Shown piece after piece: positions 5,669 through 32,000 of a stretch of DNA of 32,000 nucleotides (the stretch's first letter is position 1; each line of letters starts with the position of its first letter). The notes below the pieces were generated by a model. It was not told the origin of the DNA. It saw nothing but the letters and a program-made list of their open reading frames with translations, and searched no databases. The stretch is taken from NCBI GenBank assembly GCA_030167145.1, contig CP126532.1, positions 4,830,001 through 4,862,000 of the forward strand, read 5' to 3'. The position numbers were made by a program, and so were the translations under genes. The stretch is from Ktedonobacterales bacterium (GTDB taxonomy: Bacteria; Chloroflexota; Ktedonobacteria; Ktedonobacterales; JADMIN01).

Positions 5669-6727
5669 GTGAAGAGCAAACCGATCTGGCTCCTCGCCCT
5701 GCTTGCGGCGGCAGTGGCCCTGCCGCTGGTGTTTCCAAACCCAACCATCACCACCATTGCGGTACTGACAGTGATCTTCGCGGCGGCGGCAACCGCCTGG
5801 AATATCTTCGCTGGCTATACCGGCTATATTGCCCTGGGTCATGCGGCCTTCTTTGGGACGGGCGCATACTCTCTGGCCATCATTTGCCAACATTGGCATG
5901 TGCCGGCTGACTTCACGCCCTTTGCACTCTTGCCACTGTGCGGCGTGATCGCGGCAGTGGTATCACTTCCGCTCGGTCTGGTCGCATTGCGCACACGCGG
6001 TCACACCTTCATAGTTATCACCATTGCCATGTTCTTTGTCGCGCAGTTGCTGGCCTACGATCTGCGCGGTGTGACTCACGGCTCAGCGGGTCTGAGTCTG
6101 CCTATCCCGCTCTGGAGCGGCGACTTCTACAATATGCCCTTCTACTATGCCGGTTTGCTTATTCTGCTGCTCGCGCTAGCCGTCTCCTGGTGGATTCGCA
6201 ACTCGAAATACGGCCTGGGTTTGCTCGCCATCCGCGACGACGAGGATCGGGCGCTGGGGCTAGGCGTGAAGACTGGTCCTTCGAAGTTGTTGGCCTTTGT
6301 CATCTCCGCCTTTTTTGTCGGCATGCTCGGTGCATTATGGGCCTACTATATTGAGTCCATCTTTCCGCCGTTTGCCTTCGATGCACTCTTCGATGTCGCT
6401 ATTGCGCTCATGACCTTCATGGGCGGGATTGGTACACTCGTCGGGCCGATTTTGGGCGCGCTGCTTCTGGAGCCAGCCCAGCAGTTGTTCGCGGTCTACT
6501 TCGGCCAATCCGGCTGGTATCTCGTGCTGTATGGGGCGCTGCTCCTTGTAGTCATCTTATTGTTGCCGGAGGGCATCGTGCCGACGATACGCAAGCGCTG
6601 GGCGCAGTGGACCGCCGCCCGCGCACGATCCAGCCCCAATTCGCCCGCACCTGCGCCTCCACTTCCGCCTTCTCCTACATCACAGCATCCGGCGATAGCT
6701 GCCAGAGGAGAGGGTGGAGAACGATGA
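5669..6727 (+). CDS. Branched-chain-amino-acid-type ABC permease (LivM-like) with Pro-rich C-terminal tail
   Basis: 352 aa. GTG start abuts the livH-like stop. Contains NIFAGYTGYIALGHAAFFGTGAY and LAIRDDEDRALGLGV motifs. Confidence 0.9.
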   Translation: MKSKPIWLLALLAAAVALPLVFPNPTITTIAVLTVIFAAAATAWNIFAGYTGYIALGHAAFFGTGAYSLAIICQHWHVPADFTPFALLPLCGVIAAVVSLPLGLVALRTRGHTFIVITIAMFFVAQLLAYDLRGVTHGSAGLSLPIPLWSGDFYNMPFYYAGLLILLLALAVSWWIRNSKYGLGLLAIRDDEDRALGLGVKTGPSKLLAFVISAFFVGMLGALWAYYIESIFPPFAFDALFDVAIALMTFMGGIGTLVGPILGALLLEPAQQLFAVYFGQSGWYLVLYGALLLVVILLLPEGIVPTIRKRWAQWTAARARSSPNSPAPAPPLPPSPTSQHPAIAARGEGGER

Positions 6728-9528: not shown

Positions 9529-10167
9529 CTAGTGCTCACGTGCGGACGCGCCCAACGCCCGACGGGCAATGCCAATGAGTGTGGGTGAGGCGGCGCGCTC
9601 ATCGCGTATCCAAAGGTGTACCACATGAAAGAGCCTGACATAGGTCAGCGTGATGACTGGTTGGAATCCAGCGGTGGCGAAACCCCGGATTGATGGTTGA
9701 TTCTGAAGCGATGCGCCAATCCACAGGCGATGGGTACCTTCATCGCGCACGGTGGCGGCGATGTGGCACAGCAGTGCGCTGTACAGACCCCGGCGACGGA
9801 ATGGCGGCAAGGTCGCGCAATCCCAGATATAGGCTTCGTCGCGTGAGAGACGAATTGGCCGTTCTAACTCGCCGATGCACTCCACGCCCCACGATACCCA
9901 TCCATAAGTGGCAATTGTGCCATCGAGCCATCCCGCGAAGCAGCGGCGACTGCCATCGAAACGCTTCAGTACCAGCGCGGGATCGGCGTATCCTATAGCT
10001 GCCGCGAGTCTTTCCACATCATCGCGATGTACTTCGGCAAAGTTGGCCGTGGCCTGTGGCGAGACCGCCGCAACAGATGCGCCCTCAGCACCTGAGCGGT
10101 CGCGGTCAGTAAAATCCATAGCCCACAAAGCGCCACGCTCAAATGCCCATGGGTGCTTAAGATGCAT
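9529..10167 (-). CDS. GNAT-family N-acetyltransferase
   Basis: 212 aa. Acetyl-CoA motif A PPFRRRGLYSALL. Confidence 0.75.
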   Translation of the reverse strand: MHLKHPWAFERGALWAMDFTDRDRSGAEGASVAAVSPQATANFAEVHRDDVERLAAAIGYADPALVLKRFDGSRRCFAGWLDGTIATYGWVSWGVECIGELERPIRLSRDEAYIWDCATLPPFRRRGLYSALLCHIAATVRDEGTHRLWIGASLQNQPSIRGFATAGFQPVITLTYVRLFHVVHLWIRDERAASPTLIGIARRALGASAREH

Positions 10168-15007: not shown

Positions 15008-15640
15008 ATGTGTGGCCGATATGAACTCATTGATGGACAACGAGTATTTCTGCGCTTCAACATCACCACCACGGCGCCACTGTTACGCGATGGTGTGCCG
15101 GATAATCTAGATGTGCGGCCAAGTCAACAAGTGGCCGCCGTGGTCGGCGATCAGGTGCTGCGGCTGATGCAGTGGGGGCTGGTGCCATTCTGGGCCAAGG
15201 ATGCGACGATTGGACACAAGCTCATTAACGCACGCGCGGAAGGCATCGCCGAGAAGCCATCATTCAAACGCCCGTTGCGGTCGCAGCGCTGCATCCTGCC
15301 AGCGTCGGCATTCTTCGAGTGGCGGGCGGCGCCAGGGGCAAAGACAAAGACCAAGTATCGCATTGGCCGCCGAGACGGAGAGTTGTTCGGGTTGGCGGGC
15401 CTCTATGACACCTGGACAAGCGCGAAGAACGGGGCGGATGCGGCTACCACGCTGACGACGTGTACGATCATCACCACAACGCCGAACGCGGTGGTAGCGC
15501 CGATCCATGACCGCATGCCAGTGATCCTGCGGCCAGAGGACGAGGCCGATTGGCTGAACCCTGACCTGAGCGAGCCAGAAGAGATTGTCACCTTTCTGCG
15601 CCCGTATCCTGAGGAATGGTTGGAAGCGCGGGTGGCCTGA
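15008..15640 (+). CDS. SOS-response-associated peptidase (SRAP/YedK family; abasic-site DNA-protein crosslinking)
   Basis: 210 aa. Begins MCGRY (catalytic Cys2). Contains WGLVPFWAKD and the INARAE...FEWR motifs. Confidence 0.9.
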   Translation: MCGRYELIDGQRVFLRFNITTTAPLLRDGVPDNLDVRPSQQVAAVVGDQVLRLMQWGLVPFWAKDATIGHKLINARAEGIAEKPSFKRPLRSQRCILPASAFFEWRAAPGAKTKTKYRIGRRDGELFGLAGLYDTWTSAKNGADAATTLTTCTIITTTPNAVVAPIHDRMPVILRPEDEADWLNPDLSEPEEIVTFLRPYPEEWLEARVA

Positions 15641-26910: not shown

Positions 26911-26950
26911 TGTCAGGTATGGTCAGATGCCGTCAGATGGGGTCAGATAC
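26911..26950 (+). repeat. Four helically phased 10-bp direct repeats GTCAG(A/G)Tnnn
   Basis: gtcaggtatg / gtcagatgcc / gtcagatggg / gtcagatacg, starting at exactly 26911, 26921, 26931 and 26941. Confidence 0.9.
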
Positions 26951-27015: not shown

Positions 27016-27045
27016 TTGACAGGATGGTGTGCGCTTCTGCATAAC
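27016..27045 (+). promoter_or_regulatory. Putative promoter of the imuB-dnaE2 cassette
   Basis: TTGACA (27016-27021), 18-nt spacer, -10-like CATAAC (27040-27045). Confidence 0.5.
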
Positions 27046-27048
27046 GAT

Positions 27049-27062
27049 AGAACATGCGTTCT
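27049..27062. promoter_or_regulatory. LexA (SOS) box, GAAC-N4-GTTC type
   Basis: AGAAC ATGC GTTCT has perfect palindromic arms. It lies directly after the -10 and 27 nt before the imuB ATG. It is the only such site I found in the window. Confidence 0.75.
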
Positions 27063-27088
27063 TGTTTAGCGAAAGGGAGGCGGTCGGT

Positions 27089-28543
27089 ATGCGTGAGCTA
27101 CAGGCGGACGATGTGGTGTGCGCGGCGCTGCCGGAGGTGGGGGCAGCAGACGTGGTGGGGACGGCTGAGTATGTGGCGTGGGTGCAAATCCAAGATGTTC
27201 ACCGTGCGCTAGGTGCGGATACGGCGCAATGGGACCAGACATGGCAGCGGCTGTGCTGGCAGGTGACGGCACGGATGGAGATCGTGGAGGGTAGAGAGGA
27301 TGGGAAGGCGGAACTTAAGGGGAGCGATACGCATGGAGCGCATAGAGCGGGCGCACTGGCGGGCAGCCCTCTTCGGAACGACTCAGAGGGACTGCGCTTC
27401 ACTGGTGCGCTGCTGGCGCTGGGGTGGTGCGCGGCGACGGAGGCGGCGGGTGTGGCGCACGGGCTGGTGGGACGGCTGGCGGCGGCAGGCTACCGGGCGC
27501 GGATGGGCATCGGGCCAAATGCGACGCTGGCGCAATTGGCGCTCCAGTGCGGGAGAGCGGCGAGCAAGCTGAAGGGGCAAACGGTGGTGGTGGTGACGCC
27601 GGGGGAGGCGGTGGAGCGGTTGCTGGCGCGGACGCCGGTGGGGGCGCTGGCGGGGCTGCATCCGCGCGGGGTGGTGACGGCGGAGACGGTGGAACGATTG
27701 CGGCGGTATGGGCTGCGGACGTTGGGGCAGGTGGCGCGGCTGGTGGAACGCTCCGGGGAGGTGGCGCTGCGGCGGCAGTTTGGCCCAGTGGTGGGGGGCG
27801 CGCTGGTGGCGCTGGCACGGGGCGAGGAGCTACGTCCGTTGCAGCCGACGATGCAGCCGGAGACGTTGCGCTGTCGAGTGCGCTGGGTGATGGGTGGCTC
27901 GGCGACACAGGTGGGGGTAGGGCTGGGGAGGCTGGCAGAGCGAATCGCGGGGACGCTGGCGGAACGGGAGCAGGCGGCGGGACGGCTGCGGCTGCGGGTG
28001 GTATGGGCGCATGGTGGGGTGACGGAAGCGGAAACGCGGCTGCGCGAGCGCATCTCTGAGGCGCGACGGGTGGCGGAGGGTCTGCGGGCGCTGTGGGAGC
28101 AGTTCGTGGACCAGGACACCGACCACGGCGCAGAACATAGGGAAAATGGGCAAGGCAGGCAAGGCTGGGAGCGGCGCGCTGAGGTAGCAGACGTGGCAGT
28201 GGAGATAGAGGATTTGGTGGTGGTGCGACCAGCGCAGGGGGCCTTCTGGAAAGGGAGCGTGCAGCAGAATGCGACACTTTCGGTGCTCCGTGCGCGCGTG
28301 CGCGAGCGATTTGGTACGGGGTCGCAGGGGTTGGGACAGATCACATGTGTCGCGCCGGAGGCGGTGTTTGCGGAAGAGCGGTATGTGGTGGATGAGGGGA
28401 GCGATGAACAGATGGGCGGGCACCCGACACGGCCCACGCGGCTGGCAGGGGAGCGAGCGGCAGTGAGGACGGCAGACGGCAGCGCGGAGCGCGTCTGTGG
28501 CAATCCCTGGGCGGACGTGCCGCTGCGCTTGCATTGGTGGTGA
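27089..28543 (+). CDS. imuB: ImuB-like Y-family DNA polymerase homologue (probably catalytically inactive)
   Basis: The ATG at 27089 lies 8 nt after AAGGGAGG. MGIGPNATLAQLAL corresponds to the Y-family GIAPNKxLAK motif. An HhH/thumb region follows (LPVGALAGLHP...VERLRRYGLRTLGQVARL), then little-finger-like strands (RLRLRVVW...VAVEIEDLVVV), then QGAFW (28235-28249), a candidate beta-clamp motif. I could not recognise an N-terminal acidic catalytic triad. Confidence 0.8.
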   Translation: MRELQADDVVCAALPEVGAADVVGTAEYVAWVQIQDVHRALGADTAQWDQTWQRLCWQVTARMEIVEGREDGKAELKGSDTHGAHRAGALAGSPLRNDSEGLRFTGALLALGWCAATEAAGVAHGLVGRLAAAGYRARMGIGPNATLAQLALQCGRAASKLKGQTVVVVTPGEAVERLLARTPVGALAGLHPRGVVTAETVERLRRYGLRTLGQVARLVERSGEVALRRQFGPVVGGALVALARGEELRPLQPTMQPETLRCRVRWVMGGSATQVGVGLGRLAERIAGTLAEREQAAGRLRLRVVWAHGGVTEAETRLRERISEARRVAEGLRALWEQFVDQDTDHGAEHRENGQGRQGWERRAEVADVAVEIEDLVVVRPAQGAFWKGSVQQNATLSVLRARVRERFGTGSQGLGQITCVAPEAVFAEERYVVDEGSDEQMGGHPTRPTRLAGERAAVRTADGSAERVCGNPWADVPLRLHWW

Positions 28544-28550
28544 GCAAGCC

Positions 28551-28889
28551 ATGGGCCATGTGTATTCGCAGGTGATTGCGGTGATAACTGCTGCTGCGGG
28601 GGAACGACCGGAGCGGCTGGTATGGCGTGGGCGAGAGTATACGGTGGCGGAGGTGCTGAGCACGTGGCGGCTGCGGGATCGCTGGTGGGAGGAGCTGCCA
28701 CCACTTTCGGATGCACTCGAACCAGGAGAGCAACCACAACCTGGACAACCAGGGCACGGCCAGGGGCGACGGTTGGGAGGTGCGAGCGAGCGGACGTACT
28801 GGCGGGTGCGGTGCGTAGAGGGGATGATCTGCGACGTGTATGAAGATGCGGCGCGGGGGGTGTGGATGCTGGATAAGGTCTATGACTGA
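28551..28889 (+). CDS. Small W/R-rich protein (112 aa) wedged between imuB and dnaE2; possible detached ImuB C-terminal module
   Basis: The ATG at 28551 lies 7 nt after the imuB stop, with GGTGGTGAG as an SD-like element. NNG codon periodicity resumes exactly at this ATG. The stop overlaps the dnaE2 ATG by 8 nt. Sequence motifs: ...WRLRDRWWEE...YWRVRC...GVWMLDKVYD. Confidence 0.7.
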   Translation: MGHVYSQVIAVITAAAGERPERLVWRGREYTVAEVLSTWRLRDRWWEELPPLSDALEPGEQPQPGQPGHGQGRRLGGASERTYWRVRCVEGMICDVYEDAARGVWMLDKVYD

Positions 28890-31800
28890 GATGCTGACAG
28901 AGAGCGAGCGAGCAGCAGGCAAGGATACAGGCGGCGGTGGGAGAGCAGACGGCAGACGTTGGGAGACGCCACTCAACGGCGATGCGGGAACAGGTACAGG
29001 GCCTACAGAGTACGGGGACTACGTGGAGTTGCACTCCGCGAGCGCGTACAGTTTCCGGCGGGCGGGGAGTAGCGTGGAGGCGTTGGTGGCGCGGGCGGTG
29101 GCGCGGGCGGCGGCGCTGGGGACGGAGCGGGGCATACGGGCGCTGGCGCTGACGGACGAGATGACGCTGGCGGGGGTGGTGCGCTTCCAGGCGGCGTGCG
29201 CGGAACACGGGGTGAAGGGGATCGTGGGCTGCGCGCTGGCGGTGAGCGAGCCGCACTTTGGGACGGGGGCGGCGGGGCGACAACCGGCGGAAGTGGTGGC
29301 GCTGGCGGAGAATCAGACGGGGTATGCGCGGCTGTGTGCGTTGCTGACGGCGGCGAATCTGCGTGCGCCCGATGCGCCGGTGATTGCTTTCGCAGAACTG
29401 GCGGCGGAGCCAGAAGGGCTGATCTTGCTGACGGGTGGGCCAGAGGCGGGGACGCTGGCGCGGTTGGTGCGGGCGGGACGGCGGCAGGAGGCGGTGGCGG
29501 TGGCGCGGCGGTACCATGCGGTGTTTGGCGCAGAGCGAGTGTTCGTGGAGGTGCAGCAGCAGCGGTTGCCGGAGAGCGTGGGGCTGATGCAGGGGTTGGT
29601 GGAGGTGGCGGCAGAGGCGGGGCTGCGGGTGGTGGCGACCAATGGGGTGCGCTATGCGACACGGGCGGAGTACGCGGTGTATGACCTGCTGACCTGTGTG
29701 CGGCTGGGCATCTCGGTGGATGTGGCGCACCGGGAGCGGCCACGCAATGACGAGGCGTATCTGAAGTCGGATGCGGAGATGCGGGCGCTGTTCGCGGGGC
29801 TGCCGTGGGGGGAAGCGGCGCTGGCGGCGACGGGGGAGATTGCGGGGCGGTGCGCGGTGGCGCTGCTGCGGGGGACGTGTACGGCTCCGGCGGTGGCGCT
29901 GGCGGATGGGGAGACGCCGGACGAGCGGCTGGCGGCGCTGTGTGAGGAGGGGTTGTGGACGCGGTATGGAGCGCCTGTGGGACGGGATGCAGGCGACGGG
30001 CAAGGGCAGGTTGGGCAGGTTGGGCAGGTTGGGCAGGTTGGGCAGGTTGGGCAGGTTGGGCAGGTTGGGCAGGTTGGGCAGGTTGGGCAGGTTGGGTGGA
30101 CGAGAATACAGGCAGAGGGCGAGGCAGGCCTCGCCCCTACACCGTCCCCACCAGCAGCAGAGCAGTTGCCAGAAGAGGCGATGCCAGAAGCATTGCGGGC
30201 GGGGAGTGCGCCGCGGCGGCAACTGGCGCATGAGTTGGACGTGATTGGGCGGTTAGAGTTGGCGGAGTTTTTTTTGTGTGTGCGGGAGATGGTGAGCGCG
30301 GCGCGGGGGATGGGGGTGCGCATCAGCGGGCGGGGGTCAGCGGCGAACAGCCTGGTGGCGTATCTGCTGGGCATTACCGGGGTGGACCCCATCGCGCATG
30401 GGCTGCTGTTCGAGCGGTTCTTGAATCCAGAGCGGCGGGGGATGCCAGATATTGACCTGGATATTCAGAGCGACCGGCGGGAGGAGGTGATTCGCTGGGT
30501 GGAACGGCGGTACGGCCACGAACATGCGGCGATGGTGGCGAATGTGATGACGTATCGGGCGCGGCTGGCGCTGCGGGATGTGGCGAAGGCGCTGGGGTAT
30601 CCACTCGACGTGGTCAACCAGATGACCAAGGTGCTGCCGCACTACTGCGGGCGAGGGGAGATCGCGGGGTATGCGGAGGAGCTGGCGGGGGTGATTGCGC
30701 GAGCGGCGCAGGGACAGGGCGAGGTAGGCCTCGCCCCTACATCCACCAGACGAAGAGGGTGGACTACAGAGATAGGGCTGCGGCGGCTGCCGCTGGCGCT
30801 GGGGTTGGCGGCGCGGGTGTGTGGGTTGCCCCGGCACCTGAGCTTGCATAATGGGGGGATGGTGCTCTCGCGGGCGCGGCTGGCGGCGGTGTTGCCGGTG
30901 CGGGTCTCGGCGAATGGGGTGCGGGCGCTGGAGGTGGATAAAGACGATGTGGAGCGACTGGGACTGATCAAGTTCGACCTGTTGGGGTTGCGGACGCTGG
31001 GGGCGGTGGCGGAGGCGTTGACGTTGATCGAGGAGACGACGGGGACACGGCCGGATGTGGACCAGTTGCCGACCGAGCCGCCGGATGAACAGACGATGCG
31101 CCTGATCCGGGCGGGGCAGACGCTGGCGGTGTTTCAGATTGAGTCGCCGGGGCAGTGGCATTTGCTGGCGCAGACGCAGCCGGAGACGTTCAATGATCTG
31201 ATCGTACAGACGGCGTTGTTTCGTCCGGGGCCGATTCAGGGCGGGTTTGTGCGGCCGTATGTGGAGCAGCGCAGGGAAAAGCATGGGCAATGGCAGTGGG
31301 AGAGTCTCCAACGGGAGCAACAACAGGCAGAGCAACAACAGGCAGAGCAGCAATGGGCAGAGCAGCGGGATGCGGTGCAGACGCCGTGGCAGAGCGGTCA
31401 GGCGGATACCTTCTGGACGGGGCATGCGGTGCTGGGGCCGATCCTGCGGGAGAGCGAGGGGATTCTACTGTTTCAGGAGCAGATTCTGGAGATTGCGCAT
31501 CAGTTCGCGGGGCTGAGCTATGCCGAGGCGGATGGGTTCCGGCGGGCGATGTCGCATCAACGGGAGCCGGAGCAGATGGCGGCGATGCGGGAGCGGTTCG
31601 TGGCGGGGGCCATCGAGCGGGGGGAGACGGCGGCGGATGCGGAGCGGGTGTTCGGCGCGGTGTCGGCGTTTGTGGGGTATGGGTTCTGCAAGAGCCATGC
31701 GGCGGAGTTCGCGCGGACGATCTATCAGACGGCGTGGCTGAAGGCGCACTATCCGGCGCACTATCTGGCGGCGTTCCTCTCGGCGCAACCTGCGGGGTTC

Positions 31801-32000
31801 TTTCCGCCGCATGTGGTGCTGGAGGAGGCGAAGCTGCTGGGGGTGCCGGTGCTGCCGCCGGAGGTGAACCGGAGCGAGGGGCGGTTCACGGTGGAGTGGG
31901 TGGGGCAGCATGGTACAGCGGGGAGCCGGTATGCGCGGTGGGGGATCCGGATTGGGTTGGCGCAGGTGCGAGGGGTGGGGGAGGAGTTGGCGCGGGCGAT
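28882..32000 (+). CDS. dnaE2: Error-prone DNA polymerase III alpha-subunit paralogue DnaE2 (ImuC); 3' end outside window
   Basis: Own translation of frame 1; the frame is open to the window edge, so it is absent from the ORF track. YVELHSASAYSF (PHP), GRGSAANSLVAYLLGITGVDPI, FERFLNPERRGMPDIDLDI, LPRHLSLHNGGMVLS, GLIKFDLLGLRTLG, VFQIESPGQ, ALFRPGPIQGG, LLFQEQILE, GYGFCKSHAAEFA. An ATG at 28891 is an alternative start. Confidence 0.9.
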   Translation, partial: MTEMLTESERAAGKDTGGGGRADGRRWETPLNGDAGTGTGPTEYGDYVELHSASAYSFRRAGSSVEALVARAVARAAALGTERGIRALALTDEMTLAGVVRFQAACAEHGVKGIVGCALAVSEPHFGTGAAGRQPAEVVALAENQTGYARLCALLTAANLRAPDAPVIAFAELAAEPEGLILLTGGPEAGTLARLVRAGRRQEAVAVARRYHAVFGAERVFVEVQQQRLPESVGLMQGLVEVAAEAGLRVVATNGVRYATRAEYAVYDLLTCVRLGISVDVAHRERPRNDEAYLKSDAEMRALFAGLPWGEAALAATGEIAGRCAVALLRGTCTAPAVALADGETPDERLAALCEEGLWTRYGAPVGRDAGDGQGQVGQVGQVGQVGQVGQVGQVGQVGQVGQVGWTRIQAEGEAGLAPTPSPPAAEQLPEEAMPEALRAGSAPRRQLAHELDVIGRLELAEFFLCVREMVSAARGMGVRISGRGSAANSLVAYLLGITGVDPIAHGLLFERFLNPERRGMPDIDLDIQSDRREEVIRWVERRYGHEHAAMVANVMTYRARLALRDVAKALGYPLDVVNQMTKVLPHYCGRGEIAGYAEELAGVIARAAQGQGEVGLAPTSTRRRGWTTEIGLRRLPLALGLAARVCGLPRHLSLHNGGMVLSRARLAAVLPVRVSANGVRALEVDKDDVERLGLIKFDLLGLRTLGAVAEALTLIEETTGTRPDVDQLPTEPPDEQTMRLIRAGQTLAVFQIESPGQWHLLAQTQPETFNDLIVQTALFRPGPIQGGFVRPYVEQRREKHGQWQWESLQREQQQAEQQQAEQQWAEQRDAVQTPWQSGQADTFWTGHAVLGPILRESEGILLFQEQILEIAHQFAGLSYAEADGFRRAMSHQREPEQMAAMRERFVAGAIERGETAADAERVFGAVSAFVGYGFCKSHAAEFARTIYQTAWLKAHYPAHYLAAFLSAQPAGFFPPHVVLEEAKLLGVPVLPPEVNRSEGRFTVEWVGQHGTAGSRYARWGIRIGLAQVRGVGEELARA
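30004..30096 (+). repeat. Perfect 9-bp tandem repeat (CAGGTTGGG x10) inside dnaE2, encoding (GQV)10
   Basis: Ten identical units span 30007-30096, preceded by ggg. The array is codon-aligned with the dnaE2 frame. Confidence 0.98.
30116..30141 (+). repeat. 26-nt GC-rich palindromic element, copy 1 (in dnaE2 frame)
   Basis: aGGGCGAGGcaggCCTCGCCCctaca: an 8-bp stem GGGCGAGG/CCTCGCCC with a 4-nt loop. 25/26 identical to copy 2. Confidence 0.9.
30716..30741 (+). repeat. 26-nt GC-rich palindromic element, copy 2 (in dnaE2 frame)
   Basis: aGGGCGAGGtaggCCTCGCCCctaca, exactly 600 bp after copy 1 and therefore in the same codon phase. Confidence 0.9.
31315..31374 (+). repeat. Decaying 15-bp tandem repeat inside dnaE2 (EQQQA EQQQA EQQWA EQRDA)
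   Basis: gagcaacaacaggca x2 (perfect), then gagcagcaatgggca, then gagcagcgggatgcg. The array is codon-aligned. Confidence 0.85.

Follow-up and report, generated by a model that had tools for sequence, protein, structure and literature searches.

The 3' end of the 32-kb stretch of DNA analyzed here (the window), which comes from a metagenome-assembled genome (MAG) of a Ktedonobacterales bacterium (Chloroflexota; NCBI tags OJF49_*; JGI 3300045419, Ga0494333_323; window position 28551 is contig position 4858551), carries an operon that is probably (about 0.8) a LexA-repressed, three-gene, split-ImuB DnaE2 mutasome of the inactive Y-family polymerase (iPolY) / stand-alone ImuB-C / DnaE2 type. This probability refers to the identification of the system, and the individual protein contacts are rated correspondingly lower. 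All three genes lie on the forward strand. Open reading frame 1 (ORF1; 27089-28543, 484 residues) is assigned to iPolY, the N-terminal part of ImuB, ORF2 (28551-28889, 112 residues) to a stand-alone ImuB-C domain protein of Pfam family DUF6504, and the third gene to dnaE2, an error-prone C-family polymerase of 1329 residues that starts at 28882, crosses the window end at 32000 and runs to window-equivalent position 32871. ORF1 and ORF2 are separated by 7 nt, and ORF2 and dnaE2 overlap by 8 nt. ORF1 ends with a TGA stop at 28541-28543 and ORF2 lies in another reading frame; the codons TGG TGG TGA that end ORF1 double as a Shine-Dalgarno-like GGTGGTGA, 7 nt before the imuB-C ATG.

ORF2 matches DUF6504 above the gathering score (E 9.5e-15) and contains 6 W and 13 R in its 112 residues. 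The same domain is found at the C-terminus of canonical ImuB. In the Paracoccus protein, encoded in an imuA-imuB-dnaE2 plasmid operon, DUF6504 covers residues 431-501 of 506 (E 4.4e-4), and a profile of 54 stand-alone ImuB-C sequences aligns with residues 418-501 (hhalign, E 7e-5). This profile also matches the stand-alone ImuB-C of Sphaerobacter thermophilus, one of the proteins given in a 2026 survey (PMC12926913; hhalign, 96% probability, E 4e-9); it found nothing in the ImuB-like protein of Thermomicrobium roseum, whose C-terminus looks ImuB-C-like by eye. By homology, ORF2 is ImuB's own C-terminal domain, split off, and not an ImuA substitute; because this domain is C-terminal in canonical ImuB, ORF1 and ORF2 would together make up one split ImuB. 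The wider family was revealed by an exhaustive phmmer search with ORF2, which recovered 121 cluster representatives, all of them stand-alone proteins of 37-164 residues barring one 423-residue product (P0046); the latter was rejected as an ImuB-C fusion, being a frameshifted read-through into dnaE2. A word-indexed homologue search returned only three paralogues of the source genome, and a full-text literature search on 'DUF6504' returned no paper, so that the link to the literature came via the name ImuB-C. In the AlphaFold2 (AF2) model of ORF2 (mean predicted local distance difference test score, pLDDT, 80, and >90 in the strands), six beta-strands are present and residues 45-80 form a disordered loop. 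No fold relative of this model was found in the PDB with Foldseek (best E 1.6), in agreement with the published description of ImuB-C as a beta-barrel with a new fold (PMC12926913).

It could be argued that a new third subunit, encoded by the small ORF, takes over the function of ImuA: the gene lies inside the cassette with translational coupling to both neighbors, there is no imuA nearby, and mycobacterial ImuB-C contributes to the ImuA'-binding surface (PMC11791113). However, ORF2 is homologous to a domain that canonical ImuB possesses besides ImuA, and it is a predicted small beta-barrel with neither a RecA fold nor a P-loop. On both counts it would fill the ImuB-C slot and not the ImuA slot, which makes replacement of ImuA by the small ORF very unlikely.

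When searched alone, ORF1 had no Pfam match, IMS included, and only weak Pol IV matches in NCBIfam, so a profile that included relatives was required to assign it to the Y family. This profile, made of ORF1 and five database relatives (three of which carry Pfam IMS_C), matches structures of REV1, Pol eta and Pol IV (E 6e-10 to 1e-8) and, in hhalign, residues 87-235 of Escherichia coli DinB (95.8% probability). Residues 135-438 of ORF1 align with Sphaerobacter iPolY-wE2X (hhalign, 98.6% probability, E 6.6e-16) over the thumb, little finger, clamp motif, RecA-NT and PEER motifs. The AF2 model, computed from a six-sequence alignment, has a mean pLDDT of 50 and reaches about 80 at approximately residues 185-345 (thumb and little finger); its top Foldseek matches in the PDB are all Y-family polymerases. 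The catalytic residues D103 and E104 of DinB align to L and R in ORF1. At this motif the 20 relatives compared have 'GALLDLG', without any acidic pair, and the N-terminal D-x-D strand is 'VVCAAL'. From these substitutions, ORF1 is predicted to be a catalytically dead Y-family scaffold. Its degenerate palm also contains a low-complexity insertion of ~33 residues (EGREDGKAELKGSDTHGAHRAGALAGSPLRNDS; 27258-27365, ~residues 60-95) that is missing from nearly all relatives.

In a 20-protein alignment, a helix-hairpin-helix (HhH) thumb (VERLRRYGLRTLGQVARL) is followed by the little finger, a clamp-type motif, a helix-Gly-strand element, PDA[IV][LF]xE[ED]R, a variable linker and the tail. The putative beta-clamp-binding motif QGAFW (residues 383-387; 28235-28249, forward strand), recognized by its sequence, is kept as Q-x-x-[FL]-W or Q-x-x-L-F in the 20 iPolY sequences and matches 352-QLPLW-356 of Mycobacterium smegmatis ImuB in position and form (PMC11791113). 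A RecA-NT-like motif, VQQNATLSVLRARVRERFGTGSQGLGQITC (~residues 391-420, ...LRARVRERFGTGSQGLGQI; 28259-28348, forward strand), begins three residues past QGAFW, a spacing shared with M. smegmatis ImuB (PMC11791113). It aligns with the RecA-NT region of Sphaerobacter iPolY, and in this part AF2 models residues 389-408 as a helix and 417-420 as a strand, at low pLDDT. The protein ends with VPLRLHWW-COOH (28517-28540, forward strand), a tail conserved in the clade: HWW-stop terminates 13 of the 15 clade iPolY proteins, that of the window included, with the consensus [VA]P-x-x-x-HWW-COOH after a variable, probably disordered linker. The iPolY proteins of Sphaerobacter and Dehalogenimonas lack it and end ~46 residues earlier. 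The HWW-COOH tail may be a docking element for the separated ImuB-C.

The split arrangement recurs within Chloroflexota. One genome per GTDB species was scanned with the ImuB-C pattern W[HR]LRDRWW, taken from a narrower alignment, and 19 loci were obtained, all from Ktedonobacterales, 'Chloroflexia' or Chloroflexota MAGs; these constitute a biased sample because this pattern alone was sought. Thirteen carry iPolY, imuB-C and dnaE2 in the order of the window, one (L019) has iPolY and imuB-C but dnaE2 is not found within 6 kb, another is truncated at the end of its contig and four contain imuB-C alone. Since iPolY and imuB-C are separate in 14 further MAG loci, with gaps varying from 6 to ~400 nt, and since HWW-stop is kept in 13 of 15 cases, the split is genuine and not a sequencing frameshift or recoding. 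A programmed frameshift or read-through joining ORF1 to ORF2 was likewise rejected, given the different frames and the gaps found elsewhere. At one locus (L018), a truncated-looking iPolY gene without HWW is separated from imuB-C by a 402-nt gap, inside which lies a perfect LexA-type box (5783-5794).

The third gene is dnaE2-like. Its product contains the Pfam domains PHP, DNA_pol3_alpha, finger and HHH_6, its best NCBIfam model over the full length is NF004225 'error-prone DNA polymerase' (779 bits, versus 707 for DnaE1), and its best annotated tblastn matches all bear the name error-prone DNA polymerase or dnaE2. The closest annotated relative, with 47% identity, is encoded on an Abditibacteriota plasmid with the same polY-imuBC-dnaE2 order. 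That cassette (AP024153; L005, 2248-8319) comprises, in this order, lexA, a 78-residue ORF, PolY (417 residues, IMS), ImuB-C (111 residues, DUF6504) and dnaE2. The JGI start for the dnaE2 of the window, 29074 (1265 residues), cuts into conserved sequence: homologues align from residue 26 of the 28882 reading, and 29074 falls downstream of YVELHSASAYSF, where the PHP domain has its conserved start. This leaves 28882 or 28891 as the true start, either of which is coupled to the imuB-C stop. Within the gene, a perfect tandem repeat of a 9-nt unit in 10.3 copies (GGGCAGGTT; 30004-30096, forward strand) encodes, in frame, (GQV)10 in the variable PHP-palm linker, where homologue alignments break (residues ~362-435) in 13 of 15 Chloroflexota loci; the perfect identity of its units suggests recent expansion and possible length variation. 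A further repeat, of 15 nt in 3.3 copies (31315-31364, forward strand), encodes (EQQQA)n in the finger region.

The promoter is compatible with SOS control. A -35 hexamer TTGACA (27016-27021) and a -10-like hexamer CATAAC (27040-27045, 18-nt spacer), the latter assigned from spacing and conservation, precede a Cheo-type LexA box, AGAAC-ATGC-GTTCT (AGAACATGCGTTCT, 27049-27062), which is a perfect GAAC-N4-GTTC palindrome; the Shine-Dalgarno sequence AAGGGAGG (27073-27080, forward strand as are both hexamers) is located 8 nt before the ATG of ORF1 at 27089. These elements, like the three coupled genes with their 7-nt gap and 8-nt overlap, had been placed correctly by a sequence-only reading that preceded this analysis. 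The box starts 3 nt past the -10 and spans the expected transcription start. It is the single perfect GAAC-N4-GTTC in the 32-kb window; because shuffles give 0.34 per window, its occurrence within the ~70-nt promoter is unexpected by chance. As would be expected of an SOS operator, the palindrome overlaps the promoter and is kept in orthologous promoters. A box with no or one mismatch precedes iPolY in all 14 orthologous cassettes having upstream sequence, and a TTGAC hexamer is found upstream of the box in 12 of them, mostly 25-28 nt away. When 20 promoters were aligned (14 orthologous cassettes, the window and five solo imuB-C copies), the consensus was TAGAAC-ATAT-GTTCTT, with T at -2 in 19, and 13 promoters, that of the window among them, had TTGAC 25-28 nt upstream of the box. 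CATAAC or CATAGT also occurs in two paralogous solo imuB-C promoters of the source genome.

GAAC-N4-GTTC is reportedly the LexA site of Dehalococcoides (Chloroflexi), a result said to be due to Fernandez de Henestrosa et al. in 2002 (J Bacteriol). It is experimentally established as the LexA site of Gram-positive bacteria in Firmicutes and Actinobacteria, and the imuAB-dnaE2 cassette is under LexA control wherever examined (PMC3323433). The palindrome might instead be the operator of another regulator, or a chance repeat, with the operon outside the SOS response. The window, the 6 kb 3' of dnaE2 and the 19 related loci yielded no lexA gene, and one-mismatch boxes readily arise by chance (14 in the window, against 9 expected). 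Nevertheless, the site is the sole perfect one in 32 kb, its sequence, its extended arms and its position relative to the -35 are kept across the 20 promoters, and its motif is identical to the established LexA site (PMC3323433); an unrelated palindrome is thus hardly credible, the least probable of the alternatives considered. In the source genome, each of the three imuB-C promoters has decamer tandem repeats of the GTCAGATGCC or GGGGACACAT type ~70-100 nt upstream of its -35 (window 26922-26948; L002 ~9711-9760; L003 ~9721-9770), with differing copy numbers; short tandem repeats of 7-11 nt are common in intergenic DNA there.

No RecA-like gene accompanies the operon. Upstream in the window, Pfam searches of all ORFs of at least 200 residues found none (the hits being transporters, hydrolases, regulators and one SRAP protein), and JGI gene calls show no RecA or ImuA within 6 kb 3' of dnaE2, where an Amidase_6 gene and an NB-ARC/TPR gene are called (region 18.5-38.9 kb). 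Queries with E. coli RecA, the Thermomicrobium RecA-like ImuA and Paracoccus ImuA gave no tblastn match in the window or in the 19 related loci. The cassette is accordingly without the imuA or imuA' gene of the canonical type, and without its single ImuB with fused ImuB-C, as indicated by the TGA at 28541-28543, the frame change and the conservation of the split in the clade. The sequence-only reading had also stated that none of the ORFs in the preceding 27 kb looks RecA-like, which Pfam, JGI calls and tblastn all bear out, and that the divergent upstream neighbor is unrelated; this is an F420H2-quinone-reductase-like gene. The two places in which it had thought an answer might lie, the region 3' of the window and the dnaE2 neighborhoods of relatives, agree: there is no imuA within 6 kb of dnaE2, and the same order is found in 13 loci with no RecA or ImuA near. 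Of the two options that it offered, an imuA located elsewhere or an ImuA-less mutasome with the small ORF as third component, the second is the better one and the small ORF does appear to be a component, but as ImuB-C (DUF6504) and not as a new third factor. The gene order is indeed not the textbook one, as it had claimed, but its novelty was overstated because this order has already been published (PMC3765255; PMC6511836; PMC12926913).

The other option, a canonical ImuA-dependent mutasome with imuA or imuA' elsewhere in the genome, has two points in its favor. The search for imuA, recA and lexA covered ~42 kb of a 5.07-Mb contig and the flanks of the 19 related loci, and T. roseum, of the same phylum, carries, behind GAAC-N4-GTTC, imuB-like and dnaE2 genes immediately preceded by a recA-like gene. 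Yet no RecA/ImuA-like gene lies within 6 kb of any of the 14 orthologous cassettes, genomes with the iPolY/ImuB-C/DnaE2 module are reported to be without imuA altogether (PMC6511836; PMC12926913), and in a 2026 survey ImuA co-occurs solely with fused ImuB and group DnaE2A (PMC12926913). An imuA gene at a distance is therefore distinctly unlikely. Instead, the literature gives the role of ImuA to RecA via the RecA-NT motif (PMC6511836; PMC12926913), a motif that ORF1 appears to retain. The T. roseum locus, on megaplasmid NC_011961 (L004, 2675-8205), consists of the perfect box, the recA-like gene (PF00154, 357 residues), the imuB-like gene (416 residues, IMS_C only) and dnaE2, and represents a RecA-paralogue-containing cassette in the same broad lineage as the window.

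In the source genome, imuB-C is also found away from any polymerase gene. Two further intact copies, with 80% and 75% protein identity to ORF2, sit alone amid unrelated genes: one at contig ~3.35 Mb (L002 10001-10378, LexA box at L002 9888-9899) and one at ~4.98 Mb (L003 10001-10393, LexA box at L003 9878-9889). Both lie behind TTGACA-N17/18-CATAAC/CATAGT and TAGAAC-N4-GTTCTT. Pairwise ratios of nonsynonymous to synonymous substitution rates (dN/dS) among the three copies are 0.13-0.16 at dS 0.33-0.50, which argues that the solo copies are kept by selection. Another Chloroflexia MAG has three solo imuB-C genes, each with a perfect box and beside unrelated genes. The solo copies may plausibly have arisen when an internal part of iPolY was deleted; their leaders give no more than short, weak alignments with the two ends (5' and 3') of iPolY. 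A fourth copy, reduced to its 3' half (GTYWRVRCEEGLICDVYEDVAREVWVLDKVYD*; L002 11632-11733), follows an in-frame stop 1.3 kb from the intact L002 copy, and the sequence upstream of it duplicates the 3' flank of that copy, suggesting recombination among copies.

Solo contexts of ImuB-C, next to DinB, Ku/LigD, SplB and SRAP, were described by Aravind et al., who proposed a recruiting role (PMC3765255). The solo copies make ImuB-C look like an independent SOS gene, a better fit to such a recruiting module than to a pure 'DnaE2 tether'. It is thus conceivable, and a possibility to be taken seriously even if less probable than not, that ImuB-C is primarily an independent SOS-induced adaptor or damage sensor for several repair enzymes, the operon being one of its jobs, which would account for the extra solo genes; this overlaps partly with the best explanation. 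The two intact copies with the same promoter and LexA box, the low dN/dS values, the solo copies of the other MAG and the contexts of Aravind et al. all speak for it, but the solo copies could also be spare subunits for the iPolY-DnaE2 complex, and AlphaFold models of fused ImuB put ImuB-C on the DnaE2 PHP domain (PMC12926913). More speculatively, ImuB-C may be a family of interchangeable SOS-induced subunits that compete for, or alternate at, one docking site of the scaffold, most plausibly the HWW-COOH tail, and thereby tune or gate DnaE2 mutagenesis or link the scaffold to other repair enzymes. This idea, which counts three intact LexA-boxed paralogues and one fragment in the source genome and three solo copies in another, is doubtful at present. 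SRAP and ImuB-C have been described together as SOS components (PMC3765255), and the window contains an SRAP gene (YedK/HMCES family; PF02586, E 1.7e-59) at 15008-15640 on the forward strand, 12 kb upstream of the cassette. It was rejected as a part of the system, as no GAAC-N4-GTTC box lies near its start, even with one mismatch.

Among known systems, the operon most resembles a module whose layout, iPolY / stand-alone ImuB-C / DnaE2, was first noted by Aravind et al. in 2013 (PMC3765255). Timinskas and Venclovas (2019) defined it as the 'Kyrpidia tusciae type', with an inactive PolY, a stand-alone ImuB-C and DnaE2, considered it closest to the canonical cassette, found no imuA in the operons or in the genomes, and suggested RecA as the protein that binds the RecA-NT motif in its stead (PMC6511836). 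In Nucleic Acids Research in 2026 it appears as the 'DnaE2X-iPolY-ImuBC-RecA' system, with iPolY and ImuB-C viewed as 'a split ImuB' on the support of AlphaFold models, which include the Chloroflexi Sphaerobacter thermophilus and Dehalogenimonas lykanthroporepellens (PMC12926913). The window shares with it three genes in identical order, putative clamp and RecA-NT motifs, a Y-family homologue that by alignment is without catalytic acidic residues, a separate ImuB-C gene, and no adjacent imuA. The window represents a new lineage, however, and the sole Ktedonobacteria genome of the 2026 survey has no DnaE2; its iPolY has a longer C-terminus than the Sphaerobacter and Dehalogenimonas proteins and a more degenerate N-terminal palm and fingers than DnaE2X-system relatives, with no Pfam IMS match, and its genome differs by the additional solo LexA-boxed imuB-C paralogues.

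The canonical ImuA(ImuA')-ImuB-DnaE2 mutasome of Mycobacterium, Caulobacter, Pseudomonas and Myxococcus likewise combines a LexA-box operon, an inactive Y-family scaffold and a catalytic DnaE2. M. smegmatis ImuB shares the order of the window: 352-QLPLW-356, 3 residues, RecA-NT at 360-387, a linker and ImuB-C at 422-525 (PMC11791113). Unlike the canonical type, the window has no imuA in the cassette, its ImuB is split just before ImuB-C, and RecA is presumed to take the ImuA position. The Geobacter sulfurreducens operon lexA / imuB-C / polY is similar in having a stand-alone ImuB-C under SOS control (PMC3765255; PMC6511836). Together with other solo contexts it gives a precedent for ImuB-C as a separate subunit with partners other than DnaE2, but in Geobacter-type contexts the Y-family partner is active and DnaE2 is absent, whereas in the genome of the window two of three imuB-C genes have no polymerase neighbor. 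A functional analogue is E. coli Pol V (UmuD'2C-RecA-ATP), which is SOS-induced and combines a Y-family protein carrying clamp and RecA-NT motifs with a small beta-rich subunit and RecA. It differs in that its Y-family subunit is itself the active enzyme, no C-family polymerase takes part, and the SH3-like fold of UmuD' is unrelated to ImuB-C (PMC12926913).

Taken as a split-ImuB DnaE2 mutasome, the operon would work as follows. LexA bound to the TAGAAC-N4-GTTCTT palindrome, covering the transcription start, would block transcription until DNA damage leads to RecA-stimulated LexA self-cleavage and the operon is de-repressed. The three cistrons, translationally coupled through the short gap and the overlap, would then supply a scaffold (ORF1) that may bind the beta clamp with QGAFW and, with the adjoining RecA-NT-like motif, RecA, which would replace ImuA. 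ImuB-C would bridge to DnaE2's PHP domain, and DnaE2 would perform error-prone lesion bypass. We infer the protein-protein contacts, the substitution of RecA for ImuA, LexA binding and damage induction from the literature and from AlphaFold models of relatives. In the 2026 AlphaFold model of the canonical mutasome, DnaE2 has its PHP domain in contact with ImuB-C and its (HhH)2 region in contact with the thumb of ImuB (PMC12926913).

Several points weigh against this identification. The iPolY/ImuB-C/DnaE2 type itself is known from computational prediction alone. A generic sigma-70 scanner did not call the operon promoter, the -10 of which is weak; the promoter was missed because CATAAC has no final T, and the assignment of this hexamer therefore relies on spacing and conservation only. 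The model of ORF1 is poor, with pLDDT <50 over the N-terminal 175 residues, so that the loss of the active site is read from alignments alone. When the RecA-NT-like motif is compared directly with residues 16-25 of E. coli RecA, hhalign puts it in the right place, RERFGTG on IEKQFGKG, but the match is not significant (E 0.33), and for this reason the assignment relies on position and on the alignment with published iPolY proteins. The NCBIfam scores of the dnaE2 product, error-prone and DnaE1 alike, are under the curated cut-offs, and its membership of group DnaE2X is presumed. The extent of the imuA, recA and lexA search, given above, belongs here as well, and the selected, LexA-boxed solo copies mean that ImuB-C must also have a role needing no adjacent iPolY or DnaE2.

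The arrangement as such is already published, and the finding is modestly new: it extends the system to Ktedonobacterales and adds the solo LexA-controlled paralogues and the HWW tail. The last two are the only points that a specialist might not expect, and current understanding is not overturned. The split-ImuB mutasome has been proposed as an evolutionary precursor of the clinically relevant mycobacterial ImuA'-ImuB-DnaE2, and the 15 aligned examples, whose LexA operator is sharply conserved, offer material for testing the predicted ImuA-independent mutasome. The solo, selected imuB-C genes argue for a function of ImuB-C of its own, and the HWW tail is a concrete, mutable candidate docking element. 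If ImuB-C did prove to be a family of interchangeable subunits, it would constitute a regulatory layer undescribed for any Imu-type mutasome.

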